From positions 84,953-148,952 of the forward strand of contig JAKOXV010000003.1 of assembly GCA_029780855.1 (NCBI GenBank): DNA of 64,000 nucleotides. The letters are read 5' to 3'. Origin of the DNA: a bacterium. Its GTDB lineage: Bacteria; Patescibacteriota; Saccharimonadia; Saccharimonadales; JAUPVS01. The notes under the pieces are model-generated. The model did not search any database, was not told the origin of the DNA, and saw only the letters and a program-made list of their open reading frames with translations. The position numbers were made by a program, and so were the translations under genes. Of the stretch, positions 39,867-59,994 are shown in pieces (position 1 is the first letter of the stretch; each line of letters begins with the position of its first letter).

Positions 39867-41240
39867 ATGGTAGAGACCAATTTGTGGCAGGCAGTCTTGG
39901 GCGAAATAGAACTTTCGCTATCCCGAGCAAGCTATGTTACGTGGTTCAAAAACACCCGGCAGCTCCGCTTCAAAAATGGGGTGCTGGTGGTAGGTGTGCC
40001 AAATGTCTTTATAAAGCAGCAGCTGGAGCGGAAGTATAACCAGCTCATTTCTGACATTCTGGAGCGTACCGGTAATAAGCCAGAAAAGATTGAGTTTAAG
40101 ATTTACTCTGGTATTGCAGGAAGTCGTAAACCTACAGAAGACGAACCGGTAATCCTCCAAACTACCCAGGCTACCGTCACCAAACAGTCCGGTCCCAGAA
40201 GTAATGCGCTCAGCCACTCATACCGCCAAGGACTGAATGAACGATACACGTTTGAAACATTTATTGTTGGTTCAGCCAACGAACTTGCATACGCTGCATG
40301 CCAAGCAATCGCTCAAAATCCCGGCACCAAATACAACCCGTTGTTTTTATACGGTGGCGTGGGAATTGGCAAGACCCACCTTATTCAGGCTGTCGGTAAC
40401 GCAGTGTTAAGCAACAAGAAAGATGCCCGAGTGGTATATGCCTCCACCGAACAGTTCGTGCAAGAGTTCGTTGACGCGCTGCGCTACAAAAAGAACACCG
40501 ACTTTGCCAATCACTACCGGAACGTAGACGTACTGATTGTTGATGACGTGCAGTTTTTGGCTGGCAAAGAAAAGATTCAGGAAGAGTTCTTCCATACATT
40601 CAATGCACTCCACCAAGCAAATAAACAAATTATTATTAGTAGCGATAAGCCACCGAAAGATATTCCTACCCTGGAAGAACGGCTGCGATCACGATTTGCC
40701 TGGGGTATGACTATTGATATGCAAACACCGGATTTTGAAACGCGCTGCGCAATTCTGCAGATTAAGGCATCCGCTCATAACCAGGATTTGCCGAATGACC
40801 TAGTGGAATACCTGGCAACCAACGTACACACCAACATTCGTGAGCTTGAAGGTGCCCTGAATCAGCTACTAGCGTTTTGTGAAATGCGCGGCTTACAACC
40901 AGACTTAGCCATTGCCACCGGTTTACTGGGCGCTAATAAAACTCGCCCTAAACACTTAAGTGCCAAGCAGATTATTGAGCGCACCGCCCGGCACTTCTCT
41001 ATTCCTATGGAAGATATCTTAGGCCCAAAGCGCGACAAAGATATTGTAGTACCCCGCCAGATCGCTATGTACATGCTGCGGAGCGAGCTCCACTTAAGTT
41101 TTCCAAAGATCGCCCGCGAACTTGGCCGCAAAGATCACACTACAGCTATACATTCTGTTGAGAAGATAGAGAAAGAATCGTCGTTTGACGCCGATATCCG
41201 TAATGCTATCGCCGAAATAAAGGAGCGTTTGTATGCCTAA
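39867..41240 (+). CDS. dnaA: chromosomal replication initiator protein DnaA
   Basis: Walker A GGVGIGKTHL, LIVDDVQFL, the IRELEGAL sensor region, and the C-terminal DHTTAIHSVEKI DNA-binding helix. Confidence 0.97.
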   Translation: MVETNLWQAVLGEIELSLSRASYVTWFKNTRQLRFKNGVLVVGVPNVFIKQQLERKYNQLISDILERTGNKPEKIEFKIYSGIAGSRKPTEDEPVILQTTQATVTKQSGPRSNALSHSYRQGLNERYTFETFIVGSANELAYAACQAIAQNPGTKYNPLFLYGGVGIGKTHLIQAVGNAVLSNKKDARVVYASTEQFVQEFVDALRYKKNTDFANHYRNVDVLIVDDVQFLAGKEKIQEEFFHTFNALHQANKQIIISSDKPPKDIPTLEERLRSRFAWGMTIDMQTPDFETRCAILQIKASAHNQDLPNDLVEYLATNVHTNIRELEGALNQLLAFCEMRGLQPDLAIATGLLGANKTRPKHLSAKQIIERTARHFSIPMEDILGPKRDKDIVVPRQIAMYMLRSELHLSFPKIARELGRKDHTTAIHSVEKIEKESSFDADIRNAIAEIKERLYA

Positions 41241-41502
41241 AAACATGGTATACGTATGTGGAAAGCCCGTGCATAGCCTTTGGGTAGAGCTGTGTAAGGT
41301 TCTAGGCTTTGCACAGCCTTTAGATTTTCACTATTTTAAAGTTGGGCATATCCCCATGGTTATCCAGAAGTTTGTACAAGCTTTGTACTCAACTTTTCCA
41401 CCCAGCAATTTGTATTTTTACCCCTGTTATTTTTCAGTTACACACACTATACACAGGCCCTATGATAACAATAACTATTTATATAAAGGAGAATAGTTAC
41501 TT
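41241..41502. other. second cluster of degenerate DnaA boxes plus an AT-rich stretch in the dnaA-dnaN spacer (putative oriC/DUE)
   Basis: TGTGGAAAG at 41257-41265, TTATCCAGA at 41360-41368, TTTTCCACC at 41394-41402 and TTACACACA at 41438-41446. The stretch ataacaataactatttatataaa is AT-rich and sits just before dnaN. Confidence 0.5.
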
Positions 41503-42594
41503 ATGAAGCTGCAAGTAACCCAGGAAAATCTGAGCAAGGCACTAGGCAATGTGGCCCGAATCGCTAATACGCGTAGTACCTTACCTATTCTTTCTAATGT
41601 CTTATTAAAAACCGTAAACAATCGGCTCAGTATTGCGGCTACCAATTTAGATATTGCAATCACACAGTACATTGGTTCTAAAGTTTCGACAGAGGGAACC
41701 ATTACCGTCCCTGCCCGACTGATGCAGGATTTTGTAAGCAGCTTACCGAGCGGTGTTATTGATTTGACACTTGATGACATAAAGCTACATGTCAGTACTG
41801 AACAGTATCAATCAGTCATTAATGGTGTACCAGCAGATGACTACCCGGTAATGCCAGCAATAGAAAACGGGGTTGAGTGGACGATTCCCTCTAATGTCCT
41901 GAAAAAGGGTTTACAGCAAGTTGTGTTTGCCGCGTCGAACGATGAAACTCGTCCGGTACTAACGGGCATATATTTCCACAGCGAAGGTGGAAAACTATTT
42001 ATGGCAGCCACCGATAGTTACCGCTTAGCAGAAAAAGAACTCATGAAAACCAAAGAGGAGATTTCCCTACTCGTACCCGCTAACGCCATGCAGGATCTGT
42101 TGCGGATTATTGGTGATACAGAAGACGATGTACATATTATTCATGATGACCAACAGGTTTTATTCAGGGTTGATGATGTGGAATTAGTGGCTCGGCTTAT
42201 TGAGGGAAATTATCCACCGTATAAGAAGCTTATTCCGGCTACCTTTGCTACATCAGCCAAGCTAAAACGGAGTGAGTTAAATAGTATTACAAAGGTTTCT
42301 AGTCTGTTTGCCCGAGAGAGTGCTGGGAGTATCACGATTAAAGTAGACGAAGAAAAGCAAACAGTTAGTATCCACTCTATCGCCTCACAGCTTGGGGAAA
42401 ATACCGCCGGTGCGAGCGCTGAGGTTACTGGAAGTGGTGATATTACCCTCAACTCCCGTTACGTGCTTGATGCACTAGGCGCGATACACGGCGATAGCGT
42501 TACATTTGGTTTCAATGGTAAGTTAGAAGCTTGTAGTTTTAGGGATAACGACGAGCCAGATTACGTACATATCATTATGCCGCTGAAAAGCTAG
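41503..42594 (+). CDS. dnaN: DNA polymerase III beta sliding clamp
   Basis: 363 aa. The N-terminus MKLQVTQENLSKAL...RSTLPILSNVLL, plus TDSYRLA and a C-terminus ending IIMPLK, are typical of DnaN. Confidence 0.95.
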   Translation: MKLQVTQENLSKALGNVARIANTRSTLPILSNVLLKTVNNRLSIAATNLDIAITQYIGSKVSTEGTITVPARLMQDFVSSLPSGVIDLTLDDIKLHVSTEQYQSVINGVPADDYPVMPAIENGVEWTIPSNVLKKGLQQVVFAASNDETRPVLTGIYFHSEGGKLFMAATDSYRLAEKELMKTKEEISLLVPANAMQDLLRIIGDTEDDVHIIHDDQQVLFRVDDVELVARLIEGNYPPYKKLIPATFATSAKLKRSELNSITKVSSLFARESAGSITIKVDEEKQTVSIHSIASQLGENTAGASAEVTGSGDITLNSRYVLDALGAIHGDSVTFGFNGKLEACSFRDNDEPDYVHIIMPLKS

Positions 42595-42619
42595 CAAGAA
42601 AGTTCGGTACAATACGGGT

Positions 42620-43675
42620 ATGATCACCAACATCCGTTTACAACACTTCAGGTCATACAACGACGAATCGTTTGAATTTGATAATGGGGTGAATATTATT
42701 GTTGGTCCTAACGCCAGTGGAAAGACGAACCTACTGGAAGCCATACTTATGGTTAGTCGCGGTAAATCCTACCGGGCGGCAGATAGTGAATTGATTACCC
42801 ACACCCAACCGTGGGCCCGTATTGATGCCTTTGCAGAGAAAGAACATCGGGTAGTAAAGCTGCAGCGAGAAGATGAGCAAGTAAAAAAGAGTTTTGAAGT
42901 TGATGATAAGGTCTTTAGTAGGCTTGGTAGTGCTCACACTATTCCGGTAGTACTGTTTGAGCCGGATCATTTGAGTATGTTGAGCGGTTCACCTGAAGGC
43001 CGCCGTAATTTTATTGATGAATTGATTGAACAGGTAACGCCTGGCTACAGCACCACACTTCGGCATTACAAGCGGGCTCTCGCGCAGCGGAACAGACTTT
43101 TAAAAAACGGCATACAAGCCGCCGACGAACAGCTTTTTGCTTGGGATGTGAGGTTGAGTGATCTTGGCGCCCATATTGTCTCAGAACGCGTTAAAATGCT
43201 TGAGACGATAAATAAAGACCTACCCCACATCTATAGCGAGTTAGCTAAGCAGCTGAGCGTAGCAAAGATTGCGTATAGTAATGAAACAGAACCGACGCTG
43301 TATGCGTCTTACTTACTTAATAAATTAGAAAAAGATCGAAGCCTGGACATAGCACGGGGTTTTACCGGTACGGGGCCTCACCGCGAAGACCTCATAATGT
43401 TTTTGCACAATAAACTACTTTCCCAAACTGCTTCACGCGGTGAAAGCCGGACAATGCTACTAGCTCTGAAGATTATTGAACTAAAGATTATTGAAAAAGC
43501 ACGAGACAAAAAGCCGCTACTGCTCCTTGATGACGTCTTTAGTGAGTTGGATGGATCGCGGCGTAAATCTCTCACTGAACATATGCAAGAGTACCAGACA
43601 TTCATAACCACCACCGATGCTGATGTGGTAGTTAAGGACTTTATTCAGTCGGTACAAACTATTCTGCTTGGATAA
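42620..43675 (+). CDS. recF: DNA replication/repair protein RecF
   Basis: GPNASGKTNLLEAI Walker A, a SRGESRTMLLALK signature-like region, and LLLDDVFSELD Walker B. Confidence 0.92.
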   Translation: MITNIRLQHFRSYNDESFEFDNGVNIIVGPNASGKTNLLEAILMVSRGKSYRAADSELITHTQPWARIDAFAEKEHRVVKLQREDEQVKKSFEVDDKVFSRLGSAHTIPVVLFEPDHLSMLSGSPEGRRNFIDELIEQVTPGYSTTLRHYKRALAQRNRLLKNGIQAADEQLFAWDVRLSDLGAHIVSERVKMLETINKDLPHIYSELAKQLSVAKIAYSNETEPTLYASYLLNKLEKDRSLDIARGFTGTGPHREDLIMFLHNKLLSQTASRGESRTMLLALKIIELKIIEKARDKKPLLLLDDVFSELDGSRRKSLTEHMQEYQTFITTTDADVVVKDFIQSVQTILLG

Positions 43676-44973: not shown

Positions 44974-46926
44974 CTACTTCTTCCTAAACCATCTTATTGT
45001 TGAACCGTCCCAGCCGGTGGGGCCAATCTTCTCCACATTATCCGCCATTGGTGCGCGGCTATCAAGCGAGGATGATGCGATCGGCCCGTTAAAGCCTGGC
45101 TGATTCCCTACCCAGAAGAAGGTGTGGCCGTTATCTTCCCCGCTGGCAGTGGTATAAAAGCCAACATCTCCCGGCTGTAAGTCGGCACTGTTAGTAATAA
45201 TGCCAAGCTCTTGCCAGTTTTCACGTGCCCACTTTAGCTGGGTTGGAGTGGCCCCTCCTTTGCCGGCGTAGTTATAGTTGGGTTCAAAACCGCTGTCGAT
45301 CATGGCAGTAGTCACAAATCCTCCACAGTCGACACCCGGATAATTTATTCCCCCGACATACCGTCCTTCGCTGCGTGCTTTTGCTACAGCATCGGCATAT
45401 TCAGGCTTCATGGTTTGGTATGGTTTTCGGTGGTATTCCGGCCAGGCGTAGTTTAGAGCGGTGGCAATTATTCCCTGCCCATTAACGGCGCTACCACCAC
45501 AGCCGTTTGTGCCCGTCCCGGTGGTTGGTACAGCTTTTTCTATCCCCTCAACAATTGCGTTAGCGTAGGCGGATTTTTGCTCGTCATTCAGTCCGCTACC
45601 ACCACCCGCTTCTAGGTAAATCCACGGAACTTTAGCAAACAATTGAACGAGTGGAATGTTTCCTGGTTCCAATCCGGCACGCCCGTCAAAGCTATTGTCT
45701 TTTACCTGCACCTGAGCGCCATTGGCCATTTCCTTGGCGTCACGGGCTGCTTTCATGGTCTGGGCATACTGCTGGCTTTTATCGGCAATAGCTTGATCGG
45801 TAAAGGTAACTTTATTGGGTTCGGTACCTCGGTATAAGCCGACCTTTTGGGTATAGATTTCTCCCCAGGTTCCAAAATCTATTCCTGGGTTGTCATGAAT
45901 ACTAACCGCAACGGTAGCATTGGCGCTGGTGCCAAGATCCGCTCGCTGCCGCAAGGAAACCGTATCGTTTACGTCATTTTTAGTCATGACCACGCGGTAA
46001 CCGGCTTGTTCCAGAGCGGTTTTAGCACGGCTGGCAACGTCAAACACATCGTTCATTTCTGGCTGGTTTGGATAGTCATGGTCGGTTAAACCGGTAGCGG
46101 GGTCTTTGGTGGATACATCTGTTCCGCTATGTCCAGGATCCAGTAGGATAACCGCTTGACCGGTACTTGTGGAAGTAGACGTAGAGGTAGATCCAGATAT
46201 GCTGGTGCTGGCAGTGGCTTGTAGGCCGCCGGCTTTTGCTTGATCCAGGATACTTTGCGCATTGGCTATACGTTCTGGCTGTGGCGCTCCATCGTGTCGT
46301 TCGTATTCAACTTCAAACAATAGCGTCGCAGAAGCTACGTCTGTTGTAGCTTTTAGTTTATCGGCAAAGCCTTTTAGGTATCCTTCGGTGAGTGTGTACC
46401 AGAGGTAGTCTAGCTGGAGGGTTAAATCACCGGCGATTATCCCCTTTTCTTGTGAGATCCGGCGCAGGTCATCCTTATAGTTGCTTGCGGTAAACTGCAC
46501 GATACCGTAGCCGGCGCCGCCCGGGGGCACGTTATCATCCAAACTGGATGGCTGCCCAGCAACCGAGATTTCGCCCCTGGAGTTGGCGAATCCATACTGT
46601 ACGAGGCGAGGTTCAAAATGGGATTCACTCTGCATGTTGCCCAAGATACCAGCCGCCTGGAAATCGGTCAGTCCCTTACCCACCAAGTAGTTGAATATTT
46701 TTGCCATATTATCATCACCGGCAAGGATTGATGATGAGGTAGCTTGACACTCTTTGCTGGGGTCGTAGTAGACAGTGTTATTGATGATAGAACGTAAGTC
46801 GCTGTAGGTTACGCCGGCGCTGGCTTTTGCGGTCAGCACGATGAATGATGACATGAACAAGGCCATGAAGAGCGAAAAAGCTCGGAACAGCAGCAGTTTC
46901 TTTTTGATAGTTAGCAGTTTTTTCAT
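44974..46926 (-). CDS. secreted three-domain peptidoglycan hydrolase: lysozyme-like, MurNAc-L-Ala amidase and NlpC/P60-or-CHAP-like domains
   Basis: A signal peptide is present. AAGILGNMQSESHFEP matches the tail-lysozyme-type motif. ILLDPGHSGTD...AVSIHDN matches the Amidase_3 pattern. GVDCGGFV...GDVGFY...GHTFFWVG is a papain-like Cys/His pattern. Confidence 0.75.
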   Translation of the reverse strand: MKKLLTIKKKLLLFRAFSLFMALFMSSFIVLTAKASAGVTYSDLRSIINNTVYYDPSKECQATSSSILAGDDNMAKIFNYLVGKGLTDFQAAGILGNMQSESHFEPRLVQYGFANSRGEISVAGQPSSLDDNVPPGGAGYGIVQFTASNYKDDLRRISQEKGIIAGDLTLQLDYLWYTLTEGYLKGFADKLKATTDVASATLLFEVEYERHDGAPQPERIANAQSILDQAKAGGLQATASTSISGSTSTSTSTSTGQAVILLDPGHSGTDVSTKDPATGLTDHDYPNQPEMNDVFDVASRAKTALEQAGYRVVMTKNDVNDTVSLRQRADLGTSANATVAVSIHDNPGIDFGTWGEIYTQKVGLYRGTEPNKVTFTDQAIADKSQQYAQTMKAARDAKEMANGAQVQVKDNSFDGRAGLEPGNIPLVQLFAKVPWIYLEAGGGSGLNDEQKSAYANAIVEGIEKAVPTTGTGTNGCGGSAVNGQGIIATALNYAWPEYHRKPYQTMKPEYADAVAKARSEGRYVGGINYPGVDCGGFVTTAMIDSGFEPNYNYAGKGGATPTQLKWARENWQELGIITNSADLQPGDVGFYTTASGEDNGHTFFWVGNQPGFNGPIASSSLDSRAPMADNVEKIGPTGWDGSTIRWFRKK

Positions 46927-46929: not shown

Positions 46930-49900
46930 CTACGGTGCCTGCCCTACTCCATTTACGACCGTGTCGGATAGAGCTGCATAGTTGAAGGGGTGGATGTTTC
47001 CGGGTTTGTAATTGTCAGGTGCGGCGCTTGCCCAGTCAATTACCGTAAAGCCCTTGGAGCTCGCCAGGCGGTTCAGTATGTCATTCATAGCTGGATACTG
47101 GCTTCCGGAGTCAGCGGTTGAATACAGGTTAGTCCAGTAGATCTTGGTGTTTGGATTTAAGCCCTTTATTTTATCGATCAGCGCTGAAACATTCCCTTCA
47201 AATGCTGGATCTCCAGGGTCATTGGTGCCCAGCCCTACCACGACTACGCCGGCGTTTTTGACGATATCCTGATCCTGGTCGACCTGCGTAAAGCCACCAG
47301 GCGTAGGACCGCTGCTGCCGGTTCCGCCACAACCAGGACCACTTAGGTCAGTTTTAAGGTGTCGGCCACAGAGTGCTGATATGTCGATCTTTCGCCAACC
47401 TTTTTGGGTCAGTTTATCGTTGAGTGAGCCGCTATCACGCATTCCAACGGTTAGTGAATCACCAAGAACATAAATGTTACTGTTTTGTGCACCGGAACTG
47501 GCCGAATCTTTGGTGGGGTTAGCTAGGTCTTGGGTAAGGATTTCTACCGAGGTTGCATCCAGCCCTTTATATATGCGGTAGTGCAGGGCTTCATCGGTGG
47601 AAAGCGAGGCTACGCTACAATCTGCATCTTCTTTTACCCGTTTGTTGGCATCGTACTGACTGGCGTCGGTAAAACACTTCTGGTACTTGTTATCGAGGTC
47701 GGCGATGTTGTAGTGAGCTTTTATATAGGCTTCATTACCGGAGAGTGAAAAATCTTCATCGGTTTTCATTTTGTTGATTTCGTCTTGCGAATAGCCCCAT
47801 TGCAACATTCCGTAGTGTGGGTCGTAACCATTTGCTTCAGCCGCCAGTGCTGGTTTGGTTACAAAAGAGAATGGCATAGATAAGGTGCGCAGTGAAAAAA
47901 TAGAACCGATCTTCATGAAACCAGTCCGTAAGGTATTTGATATACCCAGCAAGCTGGTGGGGGTTTGGGCAACCACGCTACCGGTTATTGAGTACGGGTT
48001 GTGTATAGAGAAGTACCGAGCGAATACGCTTTGTCGTGCCCAGTGATCTTTTAGATCCTGGCGGCTGGCGGCATCTGCAACTAACGTTTCCTGTTCAGTC
48101 ATTGGCCGGCCGTATAGGCTAGTGCGGATAGATTGGTTCTGGGCTACATCGGTACCAATACTTGCCCGTTCATAGTAGTCAGCGCCCTTCTCCATTCCAG
48201 TAAAGGACTGGTTTGATACAGCCATGCTGACATACTGCAGACCCAGGGCATAGAGGCTCATACCGCCGAGTGTCAACATTCCCTTTGCGGAGAATACGCC
48301 TCTCGCGCTACTGACGACCGACTTGCCCAATTCATTGATGATAATTGTCGCCATGCCCTTGCCACCTTCTTCTTTAGCAACTGCGGCTTCGGGACCAGTG
48401 AGCACACCAATCGCAGTGGTGACCGCAACCTCTGCTACGACTCCAGCGATTAGACCCTCAGGACTGAGGAGTGCATTACAAAACTGTTTATCTACTTGAT
48501 CAGTGGCACCGCCAATTAAACCGCCGAAACCAGGGATATTCTTTGCGACTCCGGTTAAACCGCCAGAAGCTAGAAATGTGGGACTGGTTACGGCATTGAT
48601 GATGTTAGTCAAGGTGCTGCTGGCGCCGCCCGGCTCCAGCCTGGGCGCCTGAAAGTTTTCCGGATACGTCGGAGTTTGGTTGCTATTAACCTGGTACTGG
48701 TATGCAGGTGAAGCTTCTGCATCGGCAAGCTGTACGCTGCCGGCTCCTATGGCGTTACTCAAACCACCGGCGTCACCATAGCCGGTTTTGGCTTGGTCGC
48801 CCATGGCAGTTACATGTAACCCTTCCCGGGCTGCGTTATCCATGTTGGATCTGGCGGCTTCTTCTAAGCGGTCAGGACTAAATGCTTCGTGAGCCATACA
48901 GGCCATGGAGGCAACAATAGTGGCGGTTCCTACTTTGCTGGCAACATCGGCCACTTTGGTTGCGGTTTGGGTATTAGCGGTGAATGATTTTTGGGCGGCT
49001 TCATAGAGTTCAGGCGGGTATGGTTTACCACGGTCATCGAGGAATTTACGGATTTTATCGGGATTTGTAAGGTCGTCTTTGGTTTGATCAACAATATCAA
49101 TACCGGTGTCAGCAGGTACTTTGCCCTCCGTGACTTTTTGGTTGGCTTCCACTAAATTTTCTGTTTGAGCTTTTACTTCACTTAAACCAACAAAGTTTCT
49201 GGCTGCTTGCCGCCACGCAGAAAAGTCAAAACCGATATTTTTGGCCACCGTATCAAACGCCGCGCTCCGGATGTAGCGTTCTGAAAACGCCTCATTATCG
49301 CTCACTACAGACTTAACGCTATCAACGAACTTTGAGCGAACCTGGGCACGTTCCCTAAAATTACTAATCTTGCCAAGATCTGAATATGACTCGCCATGCC
49401 CAAGATCCCGGGCTACCGTATCTAGTGTCACTCGCCTATTCTCTATCTGCACTCCGTTGACGTTTCCGTCTCCATCGAACGTAAAGTTGAACTTGCCGTC
49501 GCTGCCCAAGGCGGCCAGGTCTCTGTTGGGGTCTATTCCCCGTACTTTCTGCCACAGCGAGCGGTCAGCAAGCTCTAATGACCCGTTTCCGCGGGCCAAA
49601 GCACCATCAAACAAGTTTTGGGTGTTCCGCTCATTCATTATGCCGTTCAAGCGCGCATAGCCAGCTCCGGTGAGTACTTCAGAAAAATGGATCACCTTGA
49701 GTGACGACATCGCAATAAAGATAATTATGATCGCCGCCAGACTTAGAACGCCGGTGATTCCGAGTGCAAAAAAGCCCTTTTTACGGCGGTTACGGCGTTG
49801 CGTATTTGGCGGGGTGTCATTGTAGAAACCGCCACCATTTTCTAGATCGTCTTGCTCTTCCGATTCTGCTTCGGTGGTTGCTTCGCCAGTTCCGGCGTCT

Positions 49901-49959
49901 TCCTCGGCAAGCGCCAAGCCCGCTGCATCCAATCTATCTTGCTGGTCGGTATCGGCCAC
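46930..49959 (-). CDS. 1009-aa membrane protein with an acidic N-terminus, a large unknown ectodomain and a C-terminal SGNH/GDSL hydrolase domain
   Basis: TM helix FFALGITGVLSLAAIIIIFIAM. Gly/Ala-rich hydrophobic segments occur around aa 470-600. The C-terminus has IYVLGDSLTVG (block I) and VVVGLGTNDPG (block III). Confidence 0.6.
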   Translation of the reverse strand: MADTDQQDRLDAAGLALAEEDAGTGEATTEAESEEQDDLENGGGFYNDTPPNTQRRNRRKKGFFALGITGVLSLAAIIIIFIAMSSLKVIHFSEVLTGAGYARLNGIMNERNTQNLFDGALARGNGSLELADRSLWQKVRGIDPNRDLAALGSDGKFNFTFDGDGNVNGVQIENRRVTLDTVARDLGHGESYSDLGKISNFRERAQVRSKFVDSVKSVVSDNEAFSERYIRSAAFDTVAKNIGFDFSAWRQAARNFVGLSEVKAQTENLVEANQKVTEGKVPADTGIDIVDQTKDDLTNPDKIRKFLDDRGKPYPPELYEAAQKSFTANTQTATKVADVASKVGTATIVASMACMAHEAFSPDRLEEAARSNMDNAAREGLHVTAMGDQAKTGYGDAGGLSNAIGAGSVQLADAEASPAYQYQVNSNQTPTYPENFQAPRLEPGGASSTLTNIINAVTSPTFLASGGLTGVAKNIPGFGGLIGGATDQVDKQFCNALLSPEGLIAGVVAEVAVTTAIGVLTGPEAAVAKEEGGKGMATIIINELGKSVVSSARGVFSAKGMLTLGGMSLYALGLQYVSMAVSNQSFTGMEKGADYYERASIGTDVAQNQSIRTSLYGRPMTEQETLVADAASRQDLKDHWARQSVFARYFSIHNPYSITGSVVAQTPTSLLGISNTLRTGFMKIGSIFSLRTLSMPFSFVTKPALAAEANGYDPHYGMLQWGYSQDEINKMKTDEDFSLSGNEAYIKAHYNIADLDNKYQKCFTDASQYDANKRVKEDADCSVASLSTDEALHYRIYKGLDATSVEILTQDLANPTKDSASSGAQNSNIYVLGDSLTVGMRDSGSLNDKLTQKGWRKIDISALCGRHLKTDLSGPGCGGTGSSGPTPGGFTQVDQDQDIVKNAGVVVVGLGTNDPGDPAFEGNVSALIDKIKGLNPNTKIYWTNLYSTADSGSQYPAMNDILNRLASSKGFTVIDWASAAPDNYKPGNIHPFNYAALSDTVVNGVGQAP

Positions 49960-49993: not shown

Positions 49994-51919
49994 TTATACA
50001 CCGGGGTATAATCTGTTTGCTAAATCTATAGTACCCTCAGGTTTATTTATTTCACCCTGCTGACCTGTAGCTGCCTGAACCTGTTGCGGATTAGTAGAAA
50101 TTAACCCGGTCTCTGTAGGACTGGCGGTAATCTGGATATGGACGTGGTTCTGGCCGGCAAAGAACAGGCCTTGCCCAACGGGGAACTGACTAAGCCGCTT
50201 CTTTTCTTCACTGGTAAGCTTAAATACGTCAGATAGTACATCCACCGCTGAAGGCGATTGCTTGAGCAGAAGCTGCATAGAAGCGTTGGCCACAATTGCG
50301 CGACCCATACGTGAACCCATAAAGTCTTCCACATCTTGAGAAATGGTGGTTACCCCCAGGTTGTATTTACGGGCCCGCTTAGCAAGACTAAACAGGAAGT
50401 TGGCTGAGTCTTCGTATTTCATAAGCTGCCACGCCTCGTCGACGATCAGGATGCGACGTTTTTGGTCGGTTTTGGTCTTGTTCCAGATGTAGTTGAGTAC
50501 GATATACATAGCAACCGGGCGGAGTTCATCCTCAAGATCGCGTACGTTAAAGACCACCATTGGGTTATCGATATCAATATTTGATTGCTGTGAAAAGATT
50601 CCCGCAAAGGTACCGCTCGTATACTTACGCAAACGCTGAGCTAACTGCGGTCCGGTGCCACCCATATGCAGTAGCGTGTCGTAGAGGTCAGTAATAGTTG
50701 GCGGTGTACCGGTGTGCGTAAGTGGGTCGTTGGTGATACCGGCTTTGGCGTACGTTTCAATCAGCGCAGCATCAAGGTCGGCTTCTTCTACCGGAGTAAG
50801 CGCGGGCGCTACCACCTGGTTACCAGCACCAGAGAGCATCTGTGCCTGTGCTCCGCCCATCATTAAGCGCAATAGACCGTGGAGCGTAATCAGGTTACTA
50901 CGGAGTGCGTTATCGGCCTCTTCTGTATCCACGACTTTTGGAAGATCAAATGGATTTATGCGGGTTGCGGAATTGAGGCTCAAGCGTACATATGCCCCGC
51001 CCACCGCATCACACATGCGCTGGTATTCGTTTTCTGGGTCAATAATAAACACTTCCGTACCAAACATCATGCTGCGGAGCGCCTCAAGCTTTACGGCAAA
51101 AGATTTACCAGCACCAGATTTTGCAAACACCGTAGAGTTGCTGTTTTCCAGGGTAAAGCGGTCAAAAATTACCAGCCCTGAGTTGTGCATATTTATGCCG
51201 TATAGGATTCCGTTGTCCTGGCTCAGATCGGCAGAGGTAAATGGAAAGCTCGTGCTGAGTGCGCCGGTGCTCATGTTGCGGCGGATTTGTAGCTGGTCGG
51301 TAAATTGCGGAATGGTACTATTGAGCGCTTGTTCTTGCTGGGAGGTGGCTGGCTTGGAGTACACGAGCTGCTGTCCCAAAATCGATTCCACTTTGTGGGA
51401 TACAAATTCCAGCTCATCCATACTGTTGGCATAAAGCGTGAAATACAGTCCAAACCGGAAAAAGCGTTCTTCACCCACCTGTAGTTTGTCGCGCATTTCT
51501 TCGGCGTCCATGATAGCGGCCTGTTTGCCTGGATCACGCACTCTTCCCTTTTCGGCGTCAATTTGCAGCCCTGCTTCAAGCTGACCTACTTTTTTACGAA
51601 GGTTTTCCAGAACAATCTGACTTTCAACCGGGTATATGAACATAGAAAGGTCGATCACCTCGTCAAGGTTTACCATACCACTCAACCAACCGGTGTACAG
51701 CTGGCGCGGGTAGCCAAAAACGTAGTACGTACGGGCAAAACGAGTACCAAGGTGAAAATAATTTGGCTTGAATTCTATGGAACTTGGCGCAATAAAGTCC
51801 CTAAGTGCCGTTATGCCCTTGCGAAACGCTTCCTCAACTTCCATTTGCTCGCGTTGCTGCTGGGCTTGTGCGAGTGATACGGGGTCTGTTGGAGGGTTTT
51901 GTTTTTTACCAAACGCCAT
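49994..51919 (-). CDS. virB4: VirB4/TrbE/PrgJ-family type IV secretion ATPase
   Basis: Walker A KSGAGKSF and Walker B ILIVDEAWQLM. The N-terminus has a FIAPSSIEF...RTYYVFGYP block typical of monoderm VirB4 homologues. Confidence 0.85.
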   Translation of the reverse strand: MAFGKKQNPPTDPVSLAQAQQQREQMEVEEAFRKGITALRDFIAPSSIEFKPNYFHLGTRFARTYYVFGYPRQLYTGWLSGMVNLDEVIDLSMFIYPVESQIVLENLRKKVGQLEAGLQIDAEKGRVRDPGKQAAIMDAEEMRDKLQVGEERFFRFGLYFTLYANSMDELEFVSHKVESILGQQLVYSKPATSQQEQALNSTIPQFTDQLQIRRNMSTGALSTSFPFTSADLSQDNGILYGINMHNSGLVIFDRFTLENSNSTVFAKSGAGKSFAVKLEALRSMMFGTEVFIIDPENEYQRMCDAVGGAYVRLSLNSATRINPFDLPKVVDTEEADNALRSNLITLHGLLRLMMGGAQAQMLSGAGNQVVAPALTPVEEADLDAALIETYAKAGITNDPLTHTGTPPTITDLYDTLLHMGGTGPQLAQRLRKYTSGTFAGIFSQQSNIDIDNPMVVFNVRDLEDELRPVAMYIVLNYIWNKTKTDQKRRILIVDEAWQLMKYEDSANFLFSLAKRARKYNLGVTTISQDVEDFMGSRMGRAIVANASMQLLLKQSPSAVDVLSDVFKLTSEEKKRLSQFPVGQGLFFAGQNHVHIQITASPTETGLISTNPQQVQAATGQQGEINKPEGTIDLANRLYPGV

Positions 51920-51921: not shown

Positions 51922-52851
51922 TTACTGTAAGTTCCTTTCCAGTTGCGGTTGTGGGGCGGCACCCTGACCCTTAGTAACTACCGGCGCAGTCAGATTATTG
52001 AAGTTCTTTAGTTGCTGCCGGGTGGCCGTATCAGGGTTATAGGTGTCATAGTACAGCTCGATCAGTTCTTGGGTATCAAGTGGCAAACCTTGTACACCAC
52101 ACTGCATAAGACCGCCCAGGACTGCCTGAACGCGGTTACGGAGTTCGGTTTTGGCTTGCTCTAGCTCACTTTCATTGATAGTTACGTGCTGCTCTTTGTT
52201 GTTGAACAGCCCGAACAGTCCGGTAAAGAAGCTCTTACTCTGCGTAATAGCCTTCTGAACATCGGCTACCGGAAAATATGGAATAACAATGTAGAACTTT
52301 TTATCCATAATGTTGGTTTGCACGGATAGGTCGGCCATAAAGTTGATGTAATCTTCCATGAGTAGTGCGAGCAGCATGTTATCGTGCTCGGTACGGATTT
52401 TATCCAGCTTATCTATGTAGGGCTGTAAATCCACTTTTTGGGAGCGGATGAAAATCTGAATTGGAAAGTACAGGGAATTTAAAAACCCCTGGTAGCCGTT
52501 TTCTACGGCTTCTTGTTCTTGGAGGCTCATAAGGTCATAGTTGATGCTTTTTAGCATTACGACAGACCTGAACGAACCGTCGTTCATAATCACTACACCA
52601 TCACGGATTTCGGTAATCTGCAGGGTGTTCTGTGTACTATTAGGGTTAGTCTTACTAGGGTGTAACGGTTGCCCCGGAGCGGGCGGTTGTACTGACCCGA
52701 CCGTTGCTTGCGTCTGCGGGTATTGTGCCTGGGGCTGAGGTTGAGGATACGGTTGTGGTGCGGGGGCGCTAGGTTGTGCGGGCAGAGGGTACCCTTGGTT
52801 TGGGTACTGATTTGGAACTGGCTGATTTGTGTTTGGCGCAGAAGGATTCAT
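51922..52851 (-). CDS. hypothetical protein with a Pro/Gln-rich N-terminus and a ~230-aa globular C-terminal domain
   Basis: 309 aa. It is 2 nt upstream of virB4 and probably translationally linked to it. No enzymatic motif is seen. Confidence 0.5.
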   Translation of the reverse strand: MNPSAPNTNQPVPNQYPNQGYPLPAQPSAPAPQPYPQPQPQAQYPQTQATVGSVQPPAPGQPLHPSKTNPNSTQNTLQITEIRDGVVIMNDGSFRSVVMLKSINYDLMSLQEQEAVENGYQGFLNSLYFPIQIFIRSQKVDLQPYIDKLDKIRTEHDNMLLALLMEDYINFMADLSVQTNIMDKKFYIVIPYFPVADVQKAITQSKSFFTGLFGLFNNKEQHVTINESELEQAKTELRNRVQAVLGGLMQCGVQGLPLDTQELIELYYDTYNPDTATRQQLKNFNNLTAPVVTKGQGAAPQPQLERNLQ

Positions 52852-52884
52852 TTATTAAAACCCACCCCTAACTTAAAATTTGAT

Positions 52885-53916
52885 CTAGCGGAGCGATACG
52901 ACAACTTCGTCCTCGGGAGGCTGTTTTTTATTAACCTGCCGCGATATCGTCGCAACCGTTAAATCATCACGATTAACATAGTTTAGTGTATCAGCCTTTT
53001 GTGTATCTGTCACCTCTGATGCAGCGTTCTTTTTGACAGCCTCTGCAGTAGTTTTTGCTTGTTCTTCCGGTGTAGGCAAAATACGCGTGTGGCCGTAAGC
53101 TAATCCTTTTACTTCCTTCTTTTGCTTATGAATTTTACTCAGCAACGCGTCTTCTTCCGCCTTGGAAACGGTCTGGGGTTGTGGCATGGGGTATGACTGC
53201 TGCGGTGCTTGGTAGGCGGGGGCCGATTGGGCTACGGGAGCGGGATGTTGCTGTGCGGTTCTGATCTGGTTCATTTGCTGAACAATCTGCTGGCGGTGCG
53301 CCTGGCTGGATGCTTGGGTGAGCTGCGTCATGTGCTGGGCTACGGGGTTATTCTGGTAGTCAAAAATATCATCGTTTACCGTGACATCAAGGTCGGGAAC
53401 TTGTGGAACAGAAACTGATTCCGGTGTTAGTAAGCGATCAGAACTTGGTTGTTCGGTGGCGTACGCGGGACTCTGGAACATGTTAATGTCCATACCCTTT
53501 ACTGCCCAACCACGGGTGTCAATTGTCTGTGCTAGCGCTTCAAGGCGACTTTTAACCTGATACTCGTTGAGACCATTCGTGAGAACCTGTTCAATCTTTT
53601 TGGGTGCAGTAATGGTGACCAGTTCCTGCAATCCAGATTGGTTCCATATGCGCGTTCGGGGCTTCAAGAAAAACCGTATTTTAGCCAGCAGCCAAACTTC
53701 AGAACTTTGATCATGCCCGAATGGAGCGGCCAGTACGGCAAATAGTAGCGCCGGTGGTAAGAACGGTAGCGCCAGTAGCGGCTGCACAAAGAACAGTCGG
53801 AACATAATAAACCCCAACACCACCACGATCACCGCATAAATGAACTGCCGTAAGGTTAGCGGCCCAAGTAGCTTATCTTCTGCCTCGATGTCTTGAATTA
53901 CTTTATATGTTGCCAT
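52885..53916 (-). CDS. PrgI-family (VirB3-like) membrane protein with a long Gln/Pro-rich C-terminal extension
   Basis: MATYKVIQDIEAEDKLLGPLTLRQFIYAVIVVVLGFIMF followed by a second TM helix is the PrgI-type N-terminus. I prefer the ATG at 53916 to the TTG at 53928. Confidence 0.65.
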   Translation of the reverse strand: MATYKVIQDIEAEDKLLGPLTLRQFIYAVIVVVLGFIMFRLFFVQPLLALPFLPPALLFAVLAAPFGHDQSSEVWLLAKIRFFLKPRTRIWNQSGLQELVTITAPKKIEQVLTNGLNEYQVKSRLEALAQTIDTRGWAVKGMDINMFQSPAYATEQPSSDRLLTPESVSVPQVPDLDVTVNDDIFDYQNNPVAQHMTQLTQASSQAHRQQIVQQMNQIRTAQQHPAPVAQSAPAYQAPQQSYPMPQPQTVSKAEEDALLSKIHKQKKEVKGLAYGHTRILPTPEEQAKTTAEAVKKNAASEVTDTQKADTLNYVNRDDLTVATISRQVNKKQPPEDEVVVSLR

Positions 53917-53931
53917 GGTTAGGTCCAACCC

Positions 53932-56847
53932 TTACTTCTCTTCTTGTGGTTCATTGCCTCGAATAATTTCATCAGTGCCTGGAGCGGCCCTTCTGCTAAG
54001 CCCTTTTTCGACAGATTTTCTTGCAGCCTCTATTTCATCGCTGGTAAGTGGACGATTACCAGCTTCATTCTGCCTATTCTTAACCTCAGAACTAACCAGT
54101 ATGTCCATAATGTTGCTTCGTAGGGAGGCGTTGTTGTATGACGCATATGCAGTCTCGAGCACTTGCCTAATCTCACCAGCTTTTGAGGATCCTCCGGTAA
54201 GGGCGTGGATCATAGTGTTACCAAGCATGTTGCCTTCACCAATCTTAAGACCCTTAGAGGAACCGATATCTTGGACACTCATCTTCTCGGCTTGCTCAAC
54301 TGCAGCGCGGCTGTCTGGTGCAACAGCTTTCCAGCCACCTTTTGTGGTCTTGCCATCTTTGCCCGTTACCTCTAGTTCGCTATCCCACACGGTGGAATAG
54401 CCAGTTTTGGTGAGCGCACCCGCTCTACCACCGGCAACTTCAGCAGAGGTCTTGAAGGTGTTACCCATTCCAGGCATTTCCCCGTTAAGCTGGTTGGCGA
54501 GAGTGGAAATTTCAGTTGCATCAGTGAAGCCCATTGAAGCTTTAGCGAGCCCTGCGGCACCGGCAATCGATGCTCGGCCGTACTCCTCGCTTCGGTGGGC
54601 GGCATACAAGAAGGAGGCATTGTTGCGGAGCTGTTCGGCCGCCATAACGGCGTTTCGGTCTATATCGCCCTTGCTGTCTCGCTTTTGTTCAAGTTGTTTT
54701 GCTAGGGTTTCAATTCCACCCTGGGTGCCATCCCATTTGGTAAGCGCTCCAAGTGCCTGATCATTCATGCCTGAGCGTGATAGAACGCCAGAGAGTTTTT
54801 CGGTTGCATCCCATTTGGACTGCCCAATTTGGCCCATAAGTGCAGCTCCGCCGGTGTAGCCAATTGCTCTTCCTACCTCGGATTTACCAAACCTAATCTT
54901 TGCGGCACTCTTGGGATCTACCATACTACTCGCAAGGCTGTTGTATTTTGCAAACCGGCTTCCTTCACCAAAGAGGCGACTCTCAGATGCCCTGGTTCCC
55001 AGTTCTTTGACCTGTTCGCCACGTTTTGCGGTGCGGCCACGGCGGAAGTTGCGGAGACGGTCAAACGCGCCCCGGCCACGGTCATTAACCATACCGGATA
55101 GGTTGGCGACTGCACCGCCAGATAACCTAATGGCATAAGGAAGGGCGAAGTACGGGCCAAAGTAACAAACAAATTTCACGAATGTTGCAAAGAAACCGGT
55201 TGGGTCAGAAAACGTTGCGTCAACTAACCCCGCAAAGCTACGTCCCATAGCAATAAACCCAACAATAATCGGGTACACAATCAAAGATCTGGAGAAAAAG
55301 TCGTACCAGAGTTTCCAACCTTTTTGGGTGTTCGGAAGTATGAACATAACGATTGCCAACGGCGCCACAATAACTAAGAACGCAATAATAACCTGACGTA
55401 ATACCAGTACAGCTAGGGCAATGATGACTCCAAGCGCGGCTGTAACGATGAAGCTAAGCATTCCAAGGCCACCCAAGATACCAAAGCCTGCAAGCAGTCC
55501 TAGACCTCCCACGGCGACTTGACCAGACCATACCTCAATACCATTGTTTGTGGCACTAAAAGCACGGGTGATTATATTTCCCACATCTGCGCCGATTACA
55601 TTGGTGGCATCAATTGCAAACTTCATCAATGGCCAAGAAAAGGTAATCATAATGACCGCGGCAATAATACGTGGCAGCACCTTTTTTACGGTGTAGGCAT
55701 CAAAAACCCCAAAACCTAATGCCTGGGAAATGACCATTACTAACCCAACAATCACTAGCAGACCTAATGCAATGGTTCTAAAGTTGCTCCAGGCATTGTA
55801 GAGAGAACTATTGCTAGACATTAACGTTCCGGTATCAAATTTGAGGGTATCACTAATCGCGGTGTCTAGCTTTTTGACCACATCTTGTGCAGCGTTAATA
55901 AGCCCACAGAACAGCCAGTTCAGCGGGTTAAGCCAATTAAGACCGTCGACGTGGCAAGTAATCCCCGTATCCCCATTGGCGTCAGTGCTTCCAGAAGCTC
56001 CCGCTTGCCCCACAGTGGCATCACTATAGGCGTTGCTAGGCATCGCAATCGGGTAATCTACGTCACTGTTCACTGCAGAATCGTTCGAGACAATCTTACA
56101 GTTCGCGTCACCAGAATTTGCAGTGTTGCTCCCACCATCCGCAAGTTCGTACATTCGCATGTTGTTACCCGAGACATAAATGTTATCTACACACGTTTTG
56201 TTTTGCTGGCTAAACTCTTTATCACGCATGTAGCGGTTAGGGTCAATTGTGGACTTGGTAAAATCCCAGTCACTATTATCATCAACACGGTGGATCACGT
56301 TCCCATCAGAGCTGTAGTAGTAAATAAAACTGTTTGGCTGCACGTTATTTAGAGATATGGAAACACTATTTGGGTCGCTGTTCTGACATTTTGTAGCAGT
56401 ATTTGAACTAAGAAAATCAACGTCAATCGTTGCCTTACTGAAATCGTAGGTGTTTTCTGCAGCGGTGCGCTTAGGGTCGGTGGTGCCTCGGTTGAGGTTT
56501 GCGAGAGTAAGTGTCGCATGACAGCTTGTGTGCCCGTCCGGGCTTAACCACCCAACCCCATTGAAGTTTGCCGAATCAACCGAGTTGCTATTGTTGCGAG
56601 AATTGGTTGAGGTAAATCGGACCACTTGAGAACCGATCTTTACATCGATGTTGCTGCGGTTTATCCAGGTACCGGAAGCGTTCTTAATATCGTCGTTACT
56701 AACTGCAGAAGCGTCTGCATGGGTTGAGTTATCCTGTGCGTTAGCAGTACCGGGCTTGAGGATCGGCAAGAAGATTGATGCTAGGAATCCCACCATCAGT
56801 ACATAAAAAAATACTTTCTTACTATTTCTTTTTGACGCTAGCTTCAT
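53932..56847 (-). CDS. VirB6/TrbL-like polytopic channel protein with large N-terminal ecto- and C-terminal soluble domains
   Basis: 971 aa. It has a signal/anchor, a ~330-aa Asn/Ser/Asp-rich ectodomain, ~7 TM helices (aa ~360-610) and a ~360-aa C-terminal domain. It sits immediately upstream of the PrgI-like gene, as VirB6 homologues do in monoderm T4SS operons. Confidence 0.55.
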   Translation of the reverse strand: MKLASKRNSKKVFFYVLMVGFLASIFLPILKPGTANAQDNSTHADASAVSNDDIKNASGTWINRSNIDVKIGSQVVRFTSTNSRNNSNSVDSANFNGVGWLSPDGHTSCHATLTLANLNRGTTDPKRTAAENTYDFSKATIDVDFLSSNTATKCQNSDPNSVSISLNNVQPNSFIYYYSSDGNVIHRVDDNSDWDFTKSTIDPNRYMRDKEFSQQNKTCVDNIYVSGNNMRMYELADGGSNTANSGDANCKIVSNDSAVNSDVDYPIAMPSNAYSDATVGQAGASGSTDANGDTGITCHVDGLNWLNPLNWLFCGLINAAQDVVKKLDTAISDTLKFDTGTLMSSNSSLYNAWSNFRTIALGLLVIVGLVMVISQALGFGVFDAYTVKKVLPRIIAAVIMITFSWPLMKFAIDATNVIGADVGNIITRAFSATNNGIEVWSGQVAVGGLGLLAGFGILGGLGMLSFIVTAALGVIIALAVLVLRQVIIAFLVIVAPLAIVMFILPNTQKGWKLWYDFFSRSLIVYPIIVGFIAMGRSFAGLVDATFSDPTGFFATFVKFVCYFGPYFALPYAIRLSGGAVANLSGMVNDRGRGAFDRLRNFRRGRTAKRGEQVKELGTRASESRLFGEGSRFAKYNSLASSMVDPKSAAKIRFGKSEVGRAIGYTGGAALMGQIGQSKWDATEKLSGVLSRSGMNDQALGALTKWDGTQGGIETLAKQLEQKRDSKGDIDRNAVMAAEQLRNNASFLYAAHRSEEYGRASIAGAAGLAKASMGFTDATEISTLANQLNGEMPGMGNTFKTSAEVAGGRAGALTKTGYSTVWDSELEVTGKDGKTTKGGWKAVAPDSRAAVEQAEKMSVQDIGSSKGLKIGEGNMLGNTMIHALTGGSSKAGEIRQVLETAYASYNNASLRSNIMDILVSSEVKNRQNEAGNRPLTSDEIEAARKSVEKGLSRRAAPGTDEIIRGNEPQEEK

Positions 56848-56926
56848 AATCTCTGTTCAGTATAGCAAAGACACTATAACTTAAACAGAATAATTTTACA
56901 GACGAATTCGCAAGTCTATACGGCTT

Positions 56927-58099: not shown

Positions 58100-58615
58100 A
58101 TGAACGATCAAAACCAAAACAATCCAAAACCAGATTATGGATTTATCCTTAATCAACAGGCACCTACCCCGAAGCCCAAGCACAGTAAAAAGGTGCTTGT
58201 ACTGATTGGGCTTGGCGGTGTACTGATCGTTGCGTTAATAGGTTCGTATGTACTTACTAGCTCGCTCAATAAAGTGAGTAACCAGACGCAAACCAACCAG
58301 GCGGCCGCTGCCACCCACTTGCGGAACATCGCTAGCGGTGATACAGCAGCGGCATATAGCGAACTCAGCACCAATACCCAAACCAACTACACCCAAGAAG
58401 CCTATAAGAGCGAAGTGCTCAAAACGCTCACCGATAAGATAGACATCGGTACCTGCAGTGAAGATACTGCAAAACATACCGCCACCACGGTATACTTTGC
58501 TTGCTCCAGTAGTGATAAAAAGTTCAAAGTAACACTTAAGCTGGTAACTACAGAGGAAAACTCTCAAACACGTATTCAGCGTTATGAAGTGGTGGGAGCG
58601 GAGAAAGTGTCATGA
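58100..58615 (+). CDS. bitopic membrane protein, first gene of the pilin operon
   Basis: ORF 58043-58615 trimmed to MNDQNQNNPKPDYGF. It has one TM helix (VLVLIGLGGVLIVALIGSYVL) and a small ectodomain with 2 Cys. Confidence 0.45.
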   Translation: MNDQNQNNPKPDYGFILNQQAPTPKPKHSKKVLVLIGLGGVLIVALIGSYVLTSSLNKVSNQTQTNQAAAATHLRNIASGDTAAAYSELSTNTQTNYTQEAYKSEVLKTLTDKIDIGTCSEDTAKHTATTVYFACSSSDKKFKVTLKLVTTEENSQTRIQRYEVVGAEKVS

Positions 58616-59657: not shown

Positions 59658-59658
59658 G

Positions 59659-59994
59659 ATGTTTAGTTTTTTGCTGTATAAAACCGCCGTACGTTTTGCC
59701 GAAGCAATCAACGTCAATAGCCTACCGGGAGCAAAGAACCCTGACCAGACCCAGGCCTATGTGAGTAAGAACGGCGCGATTTTAGAAATTACTCGCCTGG
59801 TATTTGGCGCTTTTGGTGCAATCGCAGTGTTAATTATTGCCATAGCGGGCGTACAGTACGTGATTTCTCAGGGTGAAGCGCAAAAAATTTCTAAAGCAAA
59901 AAACACCATTATTTATGCAGTGCTCGGCCTGATCATTTCAATCACCGCCTACGGAATTGTTAGCTTTGTACTGAATAGGATCAATGTATCATGA
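59659..59994 (+). CDS. T4SS pilin-like protein 3
   Basis: Starts 1 nt after the upstream stop. It has the helix - VQYVISQGEAQKISKAKNTIIYAVLGLI - helix module and no obvious cleavable signal peptide. Confidence 0.6.
   Translation: MFSFLLYKTAVRFAEAINVNSLPGAKNPDQTQAYVSKNGAILEITRLVFGAFGAIAVLIIAIAGVQYVISQGEAQKISKAKNTIIYAVLGLIISITAYGIVSFVLNRINVS

Follow-up and report, generated by a model that had tools for sequence, protein, structure and literature searches.

A predicted three-module peptidoglycan hydrolase in a type IV secretion locus of a Saccharimonadales bacterium, with module exchange among its relatives

In a 64,000-nucleotide stretch of Saccharimonadales DNA (contig JAKOXV010000003.1, hereafter the window) the listing of open reading frames (ORFs) and the translation give a minus-strand ORF of exactly 650 amino acids at 44974..46926, starting with ATG and lying two genes downstream of virB4 in a type IV secretion system (T4SS) cluster. 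A sequence-only reading of the window had proposed that the product combines three different peptidoglycan-hydrolase modules. The motifs it quoted, AAGILGNMQSESHFEP, GSTSTSTSTSTGQ, ILLDPGHSGTD, AVSIHDN, GVDCGGFV and GHTFFWVG, are all present in the translation, and the three modules are borne out by Pfam, by family profiles, by AlphaFold2 (AF2) models and by residue conservation. A protein identical to the window hydrolase (P0001) is present in public data. The parts of the gene are listed here from the N-terminus onwards, with the predicted local distance difference test (pLDDT) scores of the linkers.

44974..46926, minus strand: three-module peptidoglycan hydrolase, whole ORF, with the stop codon at 44974-44976
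46822..46926, minus strand: N-terminus, residues 1-35, Lys-rich with a hydrophobic helix (hydrophobicity, AF2 and sequence)
46747..46749, minus strand: Cys60, in the linker before the lysozyme module, invariant in the homologue alignment
46231..46713, minus strand: phi29-gp13-type lysozyme module (Phage_lysozyme2), residues 72-232, with the presumed catalytic Glu101 at 46624-46626
46162..46230, minus strand: Ser/Thr-rich linker GSTSTSTSTSTGQ, residues 233-255 (sequence; AF2 pLDDT below 50 at 234-255)
45529..46161, minus strand: zinc amidase module cutting between N-acetylmuramic acid (MurNAc) and L-Ala, by prediction (Amidase_3), residues 256-466 (Pfam, alignment and fold), with H266 at 46129-46131, E290 at 46057-46059, H344 at 45895-45897 and E439 at 45610-45612, all invariant in 22 homologues
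45478..45528, minus strand: linker with Cys476 (45499-45501), residues 467-483 (pLDDT below 50 at 469-483)
44977..45477, minus strand: divergent NlpC/P60-like papain-fold module, residues 484-650, with Cys534 at 45325-45327 and His601 at 45124-45126

The full-length AF2 model has folded domains at residues 72-232, 256-466 and 484-650 that are separated by low-confidence linkers. Most blocks of 10 residues reach a pLDDT of about 75-95, and the loops 113-125 and 415-420 are of low confidence. Conservation was judged in 22 homologues with identities of 36-49% to the window protein. The putative catalytic residues, E101 in the lysozyme module, H266, E290, H344 and E439 in the amidase module and C534 and H601 in the C-terminal module, were looked for and are invariant in this set. 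Annotation with hidden Markov models (HMMs) places Phage_lysozyme2 and Amidase_3 above their cut-offs; NLPC_P60 falls below its cut-off and is supported by the family profile and the fold.

The lysozyme module belongs to the Phage_lysozyme2 family, and its predicted activity is cleavage of the glycan strand. The Pfam model (PF18013) matches residues 72-228 at an E-value of 7.7e-32, with 110.8 bits against a cut-off of 28.2 and with model positions 1-138 of 140 covered. A profile built from the 22 homologues aligns with the lysozyme domain at the N-terminus of phi29 gp13 (3csq) over the whole of that domain (E 2.3e-17), and a Foldseek search with the module returns the same structure (E 1.4e-5). 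Residues 73-111 align to gp13 17-55 free of gaps, which places E101 on chain residue 45, the Glu of GNMQSES, which we take to be the catalytic Glu of gp13. This type of module is the one found in gp13 and in tape-measure and endolysin PHROGs.

For the amidase module, Amidase_3 (PF01520) matches residues 260-463 at an E-value of 1e-14, with 55.4 bits against a cut-off of 27 and model positions 1-173 of 174. H266, E290 and H344 align with the conserved H/E/H of the solved amidases 4rn7 and 8c2o, which are presumably the zinc ligands, and E439 is a candidate for the catalytic Glu from its conservation and position. Foldseek returns Rv3717, AmiP, CwlV and AmiA at E-values from 1e-10 to 1e-7, with Rv3717/Ami1 (4lq6, 7agl) as the best match (E 1.4e-10, TM-score 0.71). 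The NCBIfam alignment also spans nearly the whole Rv3717 model. However, Rv3717 is a single-domain protein, and the window module falls outside that subfamily, since it scores 25 bits where 335 are required. None of the NCBIfam amidase subfamilies (AmiA/AmiB/AmiC, CwlD, Rv3717) was reached, the scores being 12-25 bits against cut-offs of 221-700.

We assign the C-terminal module to an NlpC/P60-like type because of its family profile, the matches of individual family members and the AF2 fold. A profile of 33 family sequences matches E. coli MepS/Spr (E 4.8e-6), with DCGGFV placed on DCSGFV and GHTF on RHVG, and PF00877 is matched individually by 18 of the 33 members at E-values of 0.01 or less (best 4.8e-7). 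The AF2 model of the domain has a pLDDT of 91, and its leading fold matches in the PDB and BFVD are all of the NlpC/P60, CHAP or Tae1 type. The invariant C534 stands at the start of a helix (534-545) and the invariant H601 in a strand (598-605). S618 or S620, conserved and in the next strand, is the probable candidate for a third polar residue. MepS/Spr (2k1g) is the closest solved relative of the module by both profile and fold, with aligned Cys/His motifs. The domain family comprises 634 clusters (50% identity) at E-values of 1e-30 or less and is almost always C-terminal in its protein; the exact combination of Phage_lysozyme2 (Lys2), Amidase_3 (Ami3) and NlpC/P60 is found in 18 of the 140 best representatives. 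One BFVD entry that is filed as viral, A0A8S5VVA6 (629 aa), matches the C-terminal module (TM-score 0.68, E 1.4e-7) far above the other viral proteins. Its size is that of this hydrolase family, so the entry may come from a Saccharibacterial contig that was assigned wrongly, or from a copy carried by a phage.

The sequence-only reading also predicted a signal peptide. By inspection, the N-terminus, MKKLLTIKKKLLLFRAFSLFMALFMSSFIVLTAKA-SA, begins with basic residues, which are followed by a hydrophobic segment (11-37) and an AKA-SA (AxA) motif at 33-37, and residues 2-36 form a single helix in the AF2 model. The segment may be either a Sec-type signal peptide or an uncleaved membrane anchor, and we regard both as equally possible.

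The genes around the hydrolase are the following.

46930..49959, minus strand: upstream neighbour, 1009 aa (hereafter slot 1), with hydrophobic segments at 61-96 and 501-522 and a C-terminal GDSL/SGNH hydrolase module
49994..51919, minus strand: VirB4/TraC-type ATPase, 83-93% identical across many Saccharimonadales
51922..57955, minus strand: T4SS-cluster genes for a 309-aa protein, PrgI (VirB3-like, 347 aa), a 971-aa multi-transmembrane protein and a 342-aa protein, in the order of SEML1_0009-0012
58612..61318, plus strand: six tandem VirB2-like T4SS pilin genes (Pfam T4SS_pilin, E 1.6e-6 to 2e-15)
44347-44973, minus strand: PEGA-like 208-aa protein with an N-terminal hydrophobic segment, counterpart of SEML1_0005
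43676-44350, minus strand: 224-aa protein with an N-terminal hydrophobic segment, counterpart of SEML1_0004
39867..43675, plus strand: dnaA, dnaN and recF, flanking the cluster

The T4SS context that had been proposed for the gene is real, as VirB4, PrgI and six VirB2-like pilin genes are all present in the window. The stop codon of slot 1 lies 3 nucleotides before the ATG of the hydrolase gene, and the next gene begins at the base after the hydrolase stop, so the hydrolase gene belongs to a minus-strand operon with hardly any space between genes. The PEGA-like and 224-aa genes likewise abut or overlap their neighbours. The large region of the slot-1 protein after the first hydrophobic segment is presumably outside the cell.

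A good point of comparison is Southlakia epibionticum ML1. The order dnaA-dnaN-recF, 224-aa protein, PEGA-like protein, hydrolase, protein of about 1000 aa, VirB4, protein of about 300 aa, PrgI and protein of about 1000 aa is that of SEML1_0001-0011, and the six tandem pilin genes match the essential pilin array described for ML1. The genes SEML1_0004-0011 are growth-defective or essential in transposon sequencing (Tn-seq) of ML1 (Wang et al. 2023, PMC10633639, supplements), and the ML1 cluster has been defined as an essential T4SS (PMC10633639). Given the matching gene order, the window ORF is the positional counterpart of SEML1_0006, a gene that was already flagged there, with another set of modules. 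SEML1_0006 encodes 644 aa, matches a glucosaminidase and a phage-tail lysozyme, has a C-terminal cysteine-proteinase fold and is itself growth-defective or essential (PMC10633639); its annotation reads as two lysozyme-like domains and a cysteine-proteinase domain (PMC10633639 supplements).

The junction of the T4SS cluster with dnaA-dnaN-recF (window 39867-57955; loci L002-L081 in our numbering) is found in about 60 Saccharimonadales species as well as in S. epibionticum ML1, and is presumably the replication origin region. Two tRNA-Ser genes (TGA and GCT anticodons) lie on the plus strand at 62779-62868 and 63077-63169, with 208 bases between them. The G+C content is 0.38-0.41 at window positions 14001-32000 and 0.43-0.51 elsewhere in the window.

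A scan of GTDB species representatives gave 80 Saccharimonadales loci with a VirB4 that is 83-91% identical to that of the window, whose own genome lies outside this set. About 60 of these loci share the arrangement of VirB4, a protein of about 800-1700 aa, a hydrolase of 390-1010 aa, one or two small proteins and then recF and dnaN. VirB4 itself falls into more than 120 database clusters at 85-93% identity. Across the loci the median identity to the window proteins is 86% for VirB4, 71% for the 309-aa protein, 69% for DnaN, 53% for RecF and 42% for PrgI, and VirB4 is thus better conserved than DnaN and RecF of the same loci. The hydrolase has a median identity of 33% over 31% of its length and the 1009-aa protein 27% over 23% of its length; the PEGA-like protein stands at 30% and the 224-aa protein at 27%. 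One locus (L038, DATLRC010000014.1) is labelled Candidatus Dormiibacterota, with a VirB4 86% identical to that of the window and the same layout; the label is probably a binning error. The locus with the closest VirB4 (L002, 91%) has 1.2 kb after slot 1 in which no ORF of at least 100 aa is found, and a 316-aa ORF without a Pfam match in the place of the hydrolase. In many loci a protein of about 470-540 aa follows the hydrolase and replaces the PEGA-like and 224-aa proteins (e.g. L004:17545-19065, L007:16737-18329, L008:18567-20177 and L012:7057-8577). It has conserved cysteine pairs at about 124/137 and 323/329 and matches none of the ten module HMMs described below.

The module content of the hydrolase position varies widely. 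Among 85 proteins from this position Pfam finds Phage_lysozyme2 in 38, GDSL in 13, M23 in 10, C39-like in 9, CHAP in 8, Amidase_3 in 7, NlpC/P60 in 7, SLT_2 in 5, GH3 in 3, Glucosaminidase in 3, SLT in 3 and VanY in 2, beside others. Architectures include e.g. GDSL+Lys2+Ami3+NlpC, GDSL+GH3+Lys2+CHAP, GH3+Lys2+M23, Ami3+Lys2+CHAP and GDSL+SLT_2+M23. To count modules we used ten HMMs built from a few Pfam-delimited seeds, leaving families without seeds (VanY, Glucosaminidase, SLT and others) unassigned; any unassigned stretch of at least 130 aa was counted as one module, and the counts are therefore approximate. On this basis the hydrolases of 56 species loci have two modules (32 loci), three (19) or four (5), in 30 architectures. 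The exact triple of the window occurs in 2 of the 56 and once more with an added GDSL module. The smallest form at this position is a glycosidase with a Cys or metallo-peptidase.

The modules of the window protein have different nearest relatives, which makes the protein a mosaic and is direct evidence of module exchange. For the lysozyme module they are, at 52-57% identity, the lysozymes of amidase-free proteins with CHAP, VanY, C39-like or GDSL partners. Those of the other two modules, at 59-61% for the amidase and 50-52% for the C-terminal module, belong to another set of proteins, whose lysozymes are more distant.

The C-terminal enzyme of slot 1 can also be swapped. It is a GDSL module in the window; elsewhere it is VanY (14 of 63), Exo_endo_phos (4) or M23 (3), and further loci have tyrosine-phosphatase-like, phosphoesterase, GDPD, M14, M74, CHAP or Amidase_2 enzymes. 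The phosphoesterase types hint at targets beyond peptidoglycan, e.g. teichoic acids, lipids or nucleic acids. The GH3 module of the hydrolase position (E 1e-46 to 1e-62; L004:15278-17539, L052:15653-18103 and L074:15337-18366) presumably is a NagZ-like exo-glucosaminidase; as an exo-acting enzyme it would suit the digestion or recycling of wall fragments more than the punching of holes.

Cysteines mark the boundaries between modules. The window hydrolase has only three of them, the nucleophile C534 and the linker residues C60 and C476, and C476 is conserved in at least 90% of the homologue sequences. Across 247 multi-module relatives the density of cysteine is 2.6% in the linkers between modules and 0.56% inside modules. 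A CC or CxC is usual before a non-terminal module (37 of 41 GDSL-Lys2 boundaries and 9 of 9 Lys2-Lys2 boundaries), and a single Cys before the terminal peptidase (18 of 18 for Lys2-M23 and 66 of 79 for Ami3-NlpC). A single Cys follows the signal peptide, and the linker-cysteine pattern is also seen in L003, L004, L006, L011, L074 and others. This distribution suggests that modules, or pairs of modules, form a chain of disulfide-closed units, with C60-C476 as the proposed pair in the window protein. For this locus we found no prior account of shuffled modules or of cysteines at their boundaries in the literature searched; its coverage was incomplete, and the negative is no proof of novelty.

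Hydrolases of other T4SSs provide the framework in which to read these results. Three hydrolase domains, LytM, SLT and CHAP, are predicted in PrgK of the Enterococcus faecalis plasmid pCF10 (PMC11323569). Like PrgK, the window protein is encoded with a monoderm T4SS, has an N-terminal segment that may anchor it, and combines a glycan-cutting domain with a Cys/His domain. The two differ in their module sets, as the window protein has Phage_lysozyme2, Amidase_3 and an NlpC/P60-like module instead, and in their integrity, as the LytM domain of PrgK is degenerate whereas the expected catalytic positions of the window protein are all conserved. A layout of SLT and CHAP has been described for the VirB1 homologues of some monoderms, and the same paper states that VirB1 may be substituted by the homologues of peptidases and lysozymes encoded downstream of virB4 (PMC12102498). 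The smallest form at the hydrolase position parallels this layout. Pfam finds no SLT domain in the window hydrolase, although SLT and SLT_2 are present at the same position in other species. The SLT and CHAP homologues presumably include TraG of pIP501. The window gene resembles the genes of the VirB1, PrgK and TraG hydrolases in lying inside a T4SS cluster with VirB4, and does so in about 60 species. A requirement for T4SS function is supported indirectly, by the Tn-seq result for SEML1_0006.

The closest thing on record to the window hydrolase is SEML1_0006, which shares its position and gene order, a similar length, a Phage_lysozyme2 module and a cysteine-proteinase fold at the C-terminus; Tn-seq scores it as essential. 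It differs in having a glucosaminidase and no Amidase_3, the two proteins being compared by annotation rather than by sequence identity. The sequence-only reading had argued that the protein is unusual from the premise that T4SS hydrolases usually carry one or two lytic domains. This premise does not hold. Three domains are predicted in PrgK and three in SEML1_0006, and three or four modules are counted in 24 of the 56 loci. Three modules are ordinary both at this position and in PrgK, and the main argument for unusualness falls with them. Taken singly, the window protein is the sort of accessory enzyme that a T4SS is expected to have, with a set of modules that is unusual. It groups functionally with the VirB1, PrgK and TraG accessory hydrolases, in which the SLT domain is common, and uses other families instead. 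What gives the locus its residual interest is a pattern that we did not find described in the literature searched: the motor is invariant, the enzyme cassette beside it is hypervariable, and cysteines mark the boundaries.

Phage enzymes are the other natural comparison. The lysozyme module is homologous to that of phi29 gp13 over its full length, the Glu of GNMQSES included. We take gp13 to be a two-module enzyme of Lys2+M23 architecture that opens the target wall from outside, and the combination of Lys2 and M23 also occurs in sister loci. However, gp13 is a virion protein that is not known to have an amidase or a Cys peptidase, whereas the window gene is chromosomal and linked to a T4SS. Mycobacteriophage Lysin A proteins are mostly three-domain proteins formed by combinatorial shuffling of peptidase, amidase and glycosidase modules (Payne & Hatfull 2012, PMC3314691). 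They resemble the present family in this combinatorial use of modules. Their targets are actinobacterial walls, and Actinobacteria are also what the cultivated Saccharibacteria grow on. They differ in being phage-encoded, in acting from within at lysis, and in their third domain, which usually binds the wall rather than being an enzyme.

On balance we think it rather probable that the hydrolase is a Sec-exported, T4SS-coupled enzyme for opening walls, with modules that cut glycan, MurNAc-L-Ala and stem-peptide bonds. It would then be the working counterpart of VirB1, PrgK and TraG as these are proposed to act in T4SSs of the Gram-positive type. The protein would be produced from the VirB4 operon and exported by the Sec pathway through its N-terminal signal or anchor, which would leave three enzymes on flexible linkers outside the membrane. 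There the gp13-type lysozyme would cut the glycan, the zinc amidase would remove stem peptides from MurNAc, and the Cys/His NlpC/P60-like peptidase would cut inside the stem peptide or the cross-link. Their joint action could open a local gap in the peptidoglycan through which the T4SS channel and VirB2-like pilus cross the wall. The relevant site would be the zone of contact with the host, where the host wall, and possibly the producer's own wall too, would be cut. The analysis shows the domains, their conserved residues of catalytic type, the place of the gene in the operon, the synteny with an essential cluster and the mosaic evolution of the modules; from these we infer export, the activity of each module, the link to the T4SS and the wall concerned.

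Several points weigh against this reading. In the C-terminal module NLPC_P60 (PF00877) reaches residues 525-615 with 18.0 bits for the full protein and 20.9 for the domain alone, below the cut-off of 23; the fold matches are weak (E 4e-3, TM-score 0.4-0.57); the identity to MepS/Spr is about 16%, at a TM-score of 0.42-0.57; and the third His of MepS (VHAS) aligns to a variable position of the window family, which has xASxS there. In the amidase module, E439 (WIYLEAGG) is invariant and inside the Pfam match, and an insertion of about 70 residues blocks its alignment to a solved chain. No VirB8/PrgL-like docking partner was identified among the window proteins. In PrgK, which binds PrgL, SLT alone is active in vitro and the other domains are regulatory (PMC11323569), and three domains therefore need not mean three activities. 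Finally, all the extracytoplasmic proteins of the cluster evolve fast, so part of the divergence may be drift of surface proteins and not adaptation to hosts.

The question of which wall would be cut separates the proposed wall-opening role from its most serious competitor, which is possible though clearly the less likely: that the enzyme opens only the producer's own peptidoglycan for T4SS assembly, as has been proposed for VirB1, PrgK and TraG. In its favour, own-wall opening is what T4SS hydrolases are standardly held to do, Saccharibacteria synthesise a peptidoglycan of their own, and the two-module core architecture parallels the SLT and CHAP of monoderm VirB1 homologues. At 85-90% VirB4 identity, however, similar walls are expected, and modules and the bonds they cut are nevertheless swapped (M23, VanY, CHAP, C39-like, NlpC/P60, Amidase_2/3, GH3 and SLT). 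Action on the host wall, which the sequence-only reading had suggested, is plausible, and it would be compatible with the swapping of modules among species whose VirB4 proteins are nearly identical. Three further observations lean towards a host-facing role, i.e. the variable C-terminal enzymes of slot 1 (VanY, GDSL, endonuclease/phosphatase, GDPD and phosphoesterase), the phage-tail type of the lysozyme, which is used for entering cells from outside, and the thickening of the host wall in the presence of TM7x, from about 15 nm to more than 40 nm. A rather unlikely variant is that a single module works and the others regulate, bind or dimerise as in PrgK, where the LytM domain is degenerate, CHAP showed no activity and both damp the SLT muramidase. 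The atypical third residue of the NlpC/P60-like triad would fit such a scheme, but unlike in PrgK-LytM each expected metal ligand and nucleophile is invariant in the homologues.

It is less likely still that host peptidoglycan is digested to importable sugars and peptides, with proximity to the T4SS reflecting co-regulation only. Glycan, amide and peptide cuts would yield small soluble products, a GH3 (NagZ-type exo-glucosaminidase) module is part of the same protein in some species, and TM7x is unable to make UDP-N-acetylglucosamine. On the other hand, the tight operon with VirB4, kept in about 60 species, and the fact that the genes of the cluster are essential together point to a component of a machine, and the cluster has no linked transporter for muropeptides. 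A housekeeping autolysin that serves growth or the separation of daughter cells, and is a neighbour of the T4SS genes by position only, might be suggested by two facts: cell separation is a frequent task of Amidase_3 and NlpC/P60 enzymes, and the locus adjoins replication origin genes. We consider this improbable, as changes of architecture between close relatives are not expected of an autolysin and about 60 species keep the gene in the second place after virB4. A remnant of a prophage endolysin or tail lysin was also considered and rejected as extremely improbable. Single modules do match phage endolysin and tape-measure PHROGs and phi29 gp13, but the three flanking proteins tested (1009, 208 and 224 aa) have no PHROG matches, and the gene, which has an export signal, stands in a chromosomal T4SS operon whose synteny beside dnaA-dnaN-recF is kept in many species.

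S. epibionticum ML1, the sole Saccharibacterium tested genome-wide, needs its T4SS for epibiotic growth, and the role of the system has been described as completely unknown. Among the enzymes of this cluster, the hydrolases encoded beside virB4 vary most. A tentative extension of the wall-opening role, which we would put well below even, is that slot 1 and the hydrolase together form a hypervariable cassette on a near-invariant motor, with disulfide-closed units of the form C-[module]-CxC-[module]-C-[peptidase] that are freely exchanged and a module set matched to the host envelope. The cassette would then determine host range by opening the wall of the host to the T4SS pilus, in the manner of a phage tail lysin. 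If module sets do track the chemistry of the host wall, they would give a handle, readable from sequence, on the host range of this uncultured lineage.

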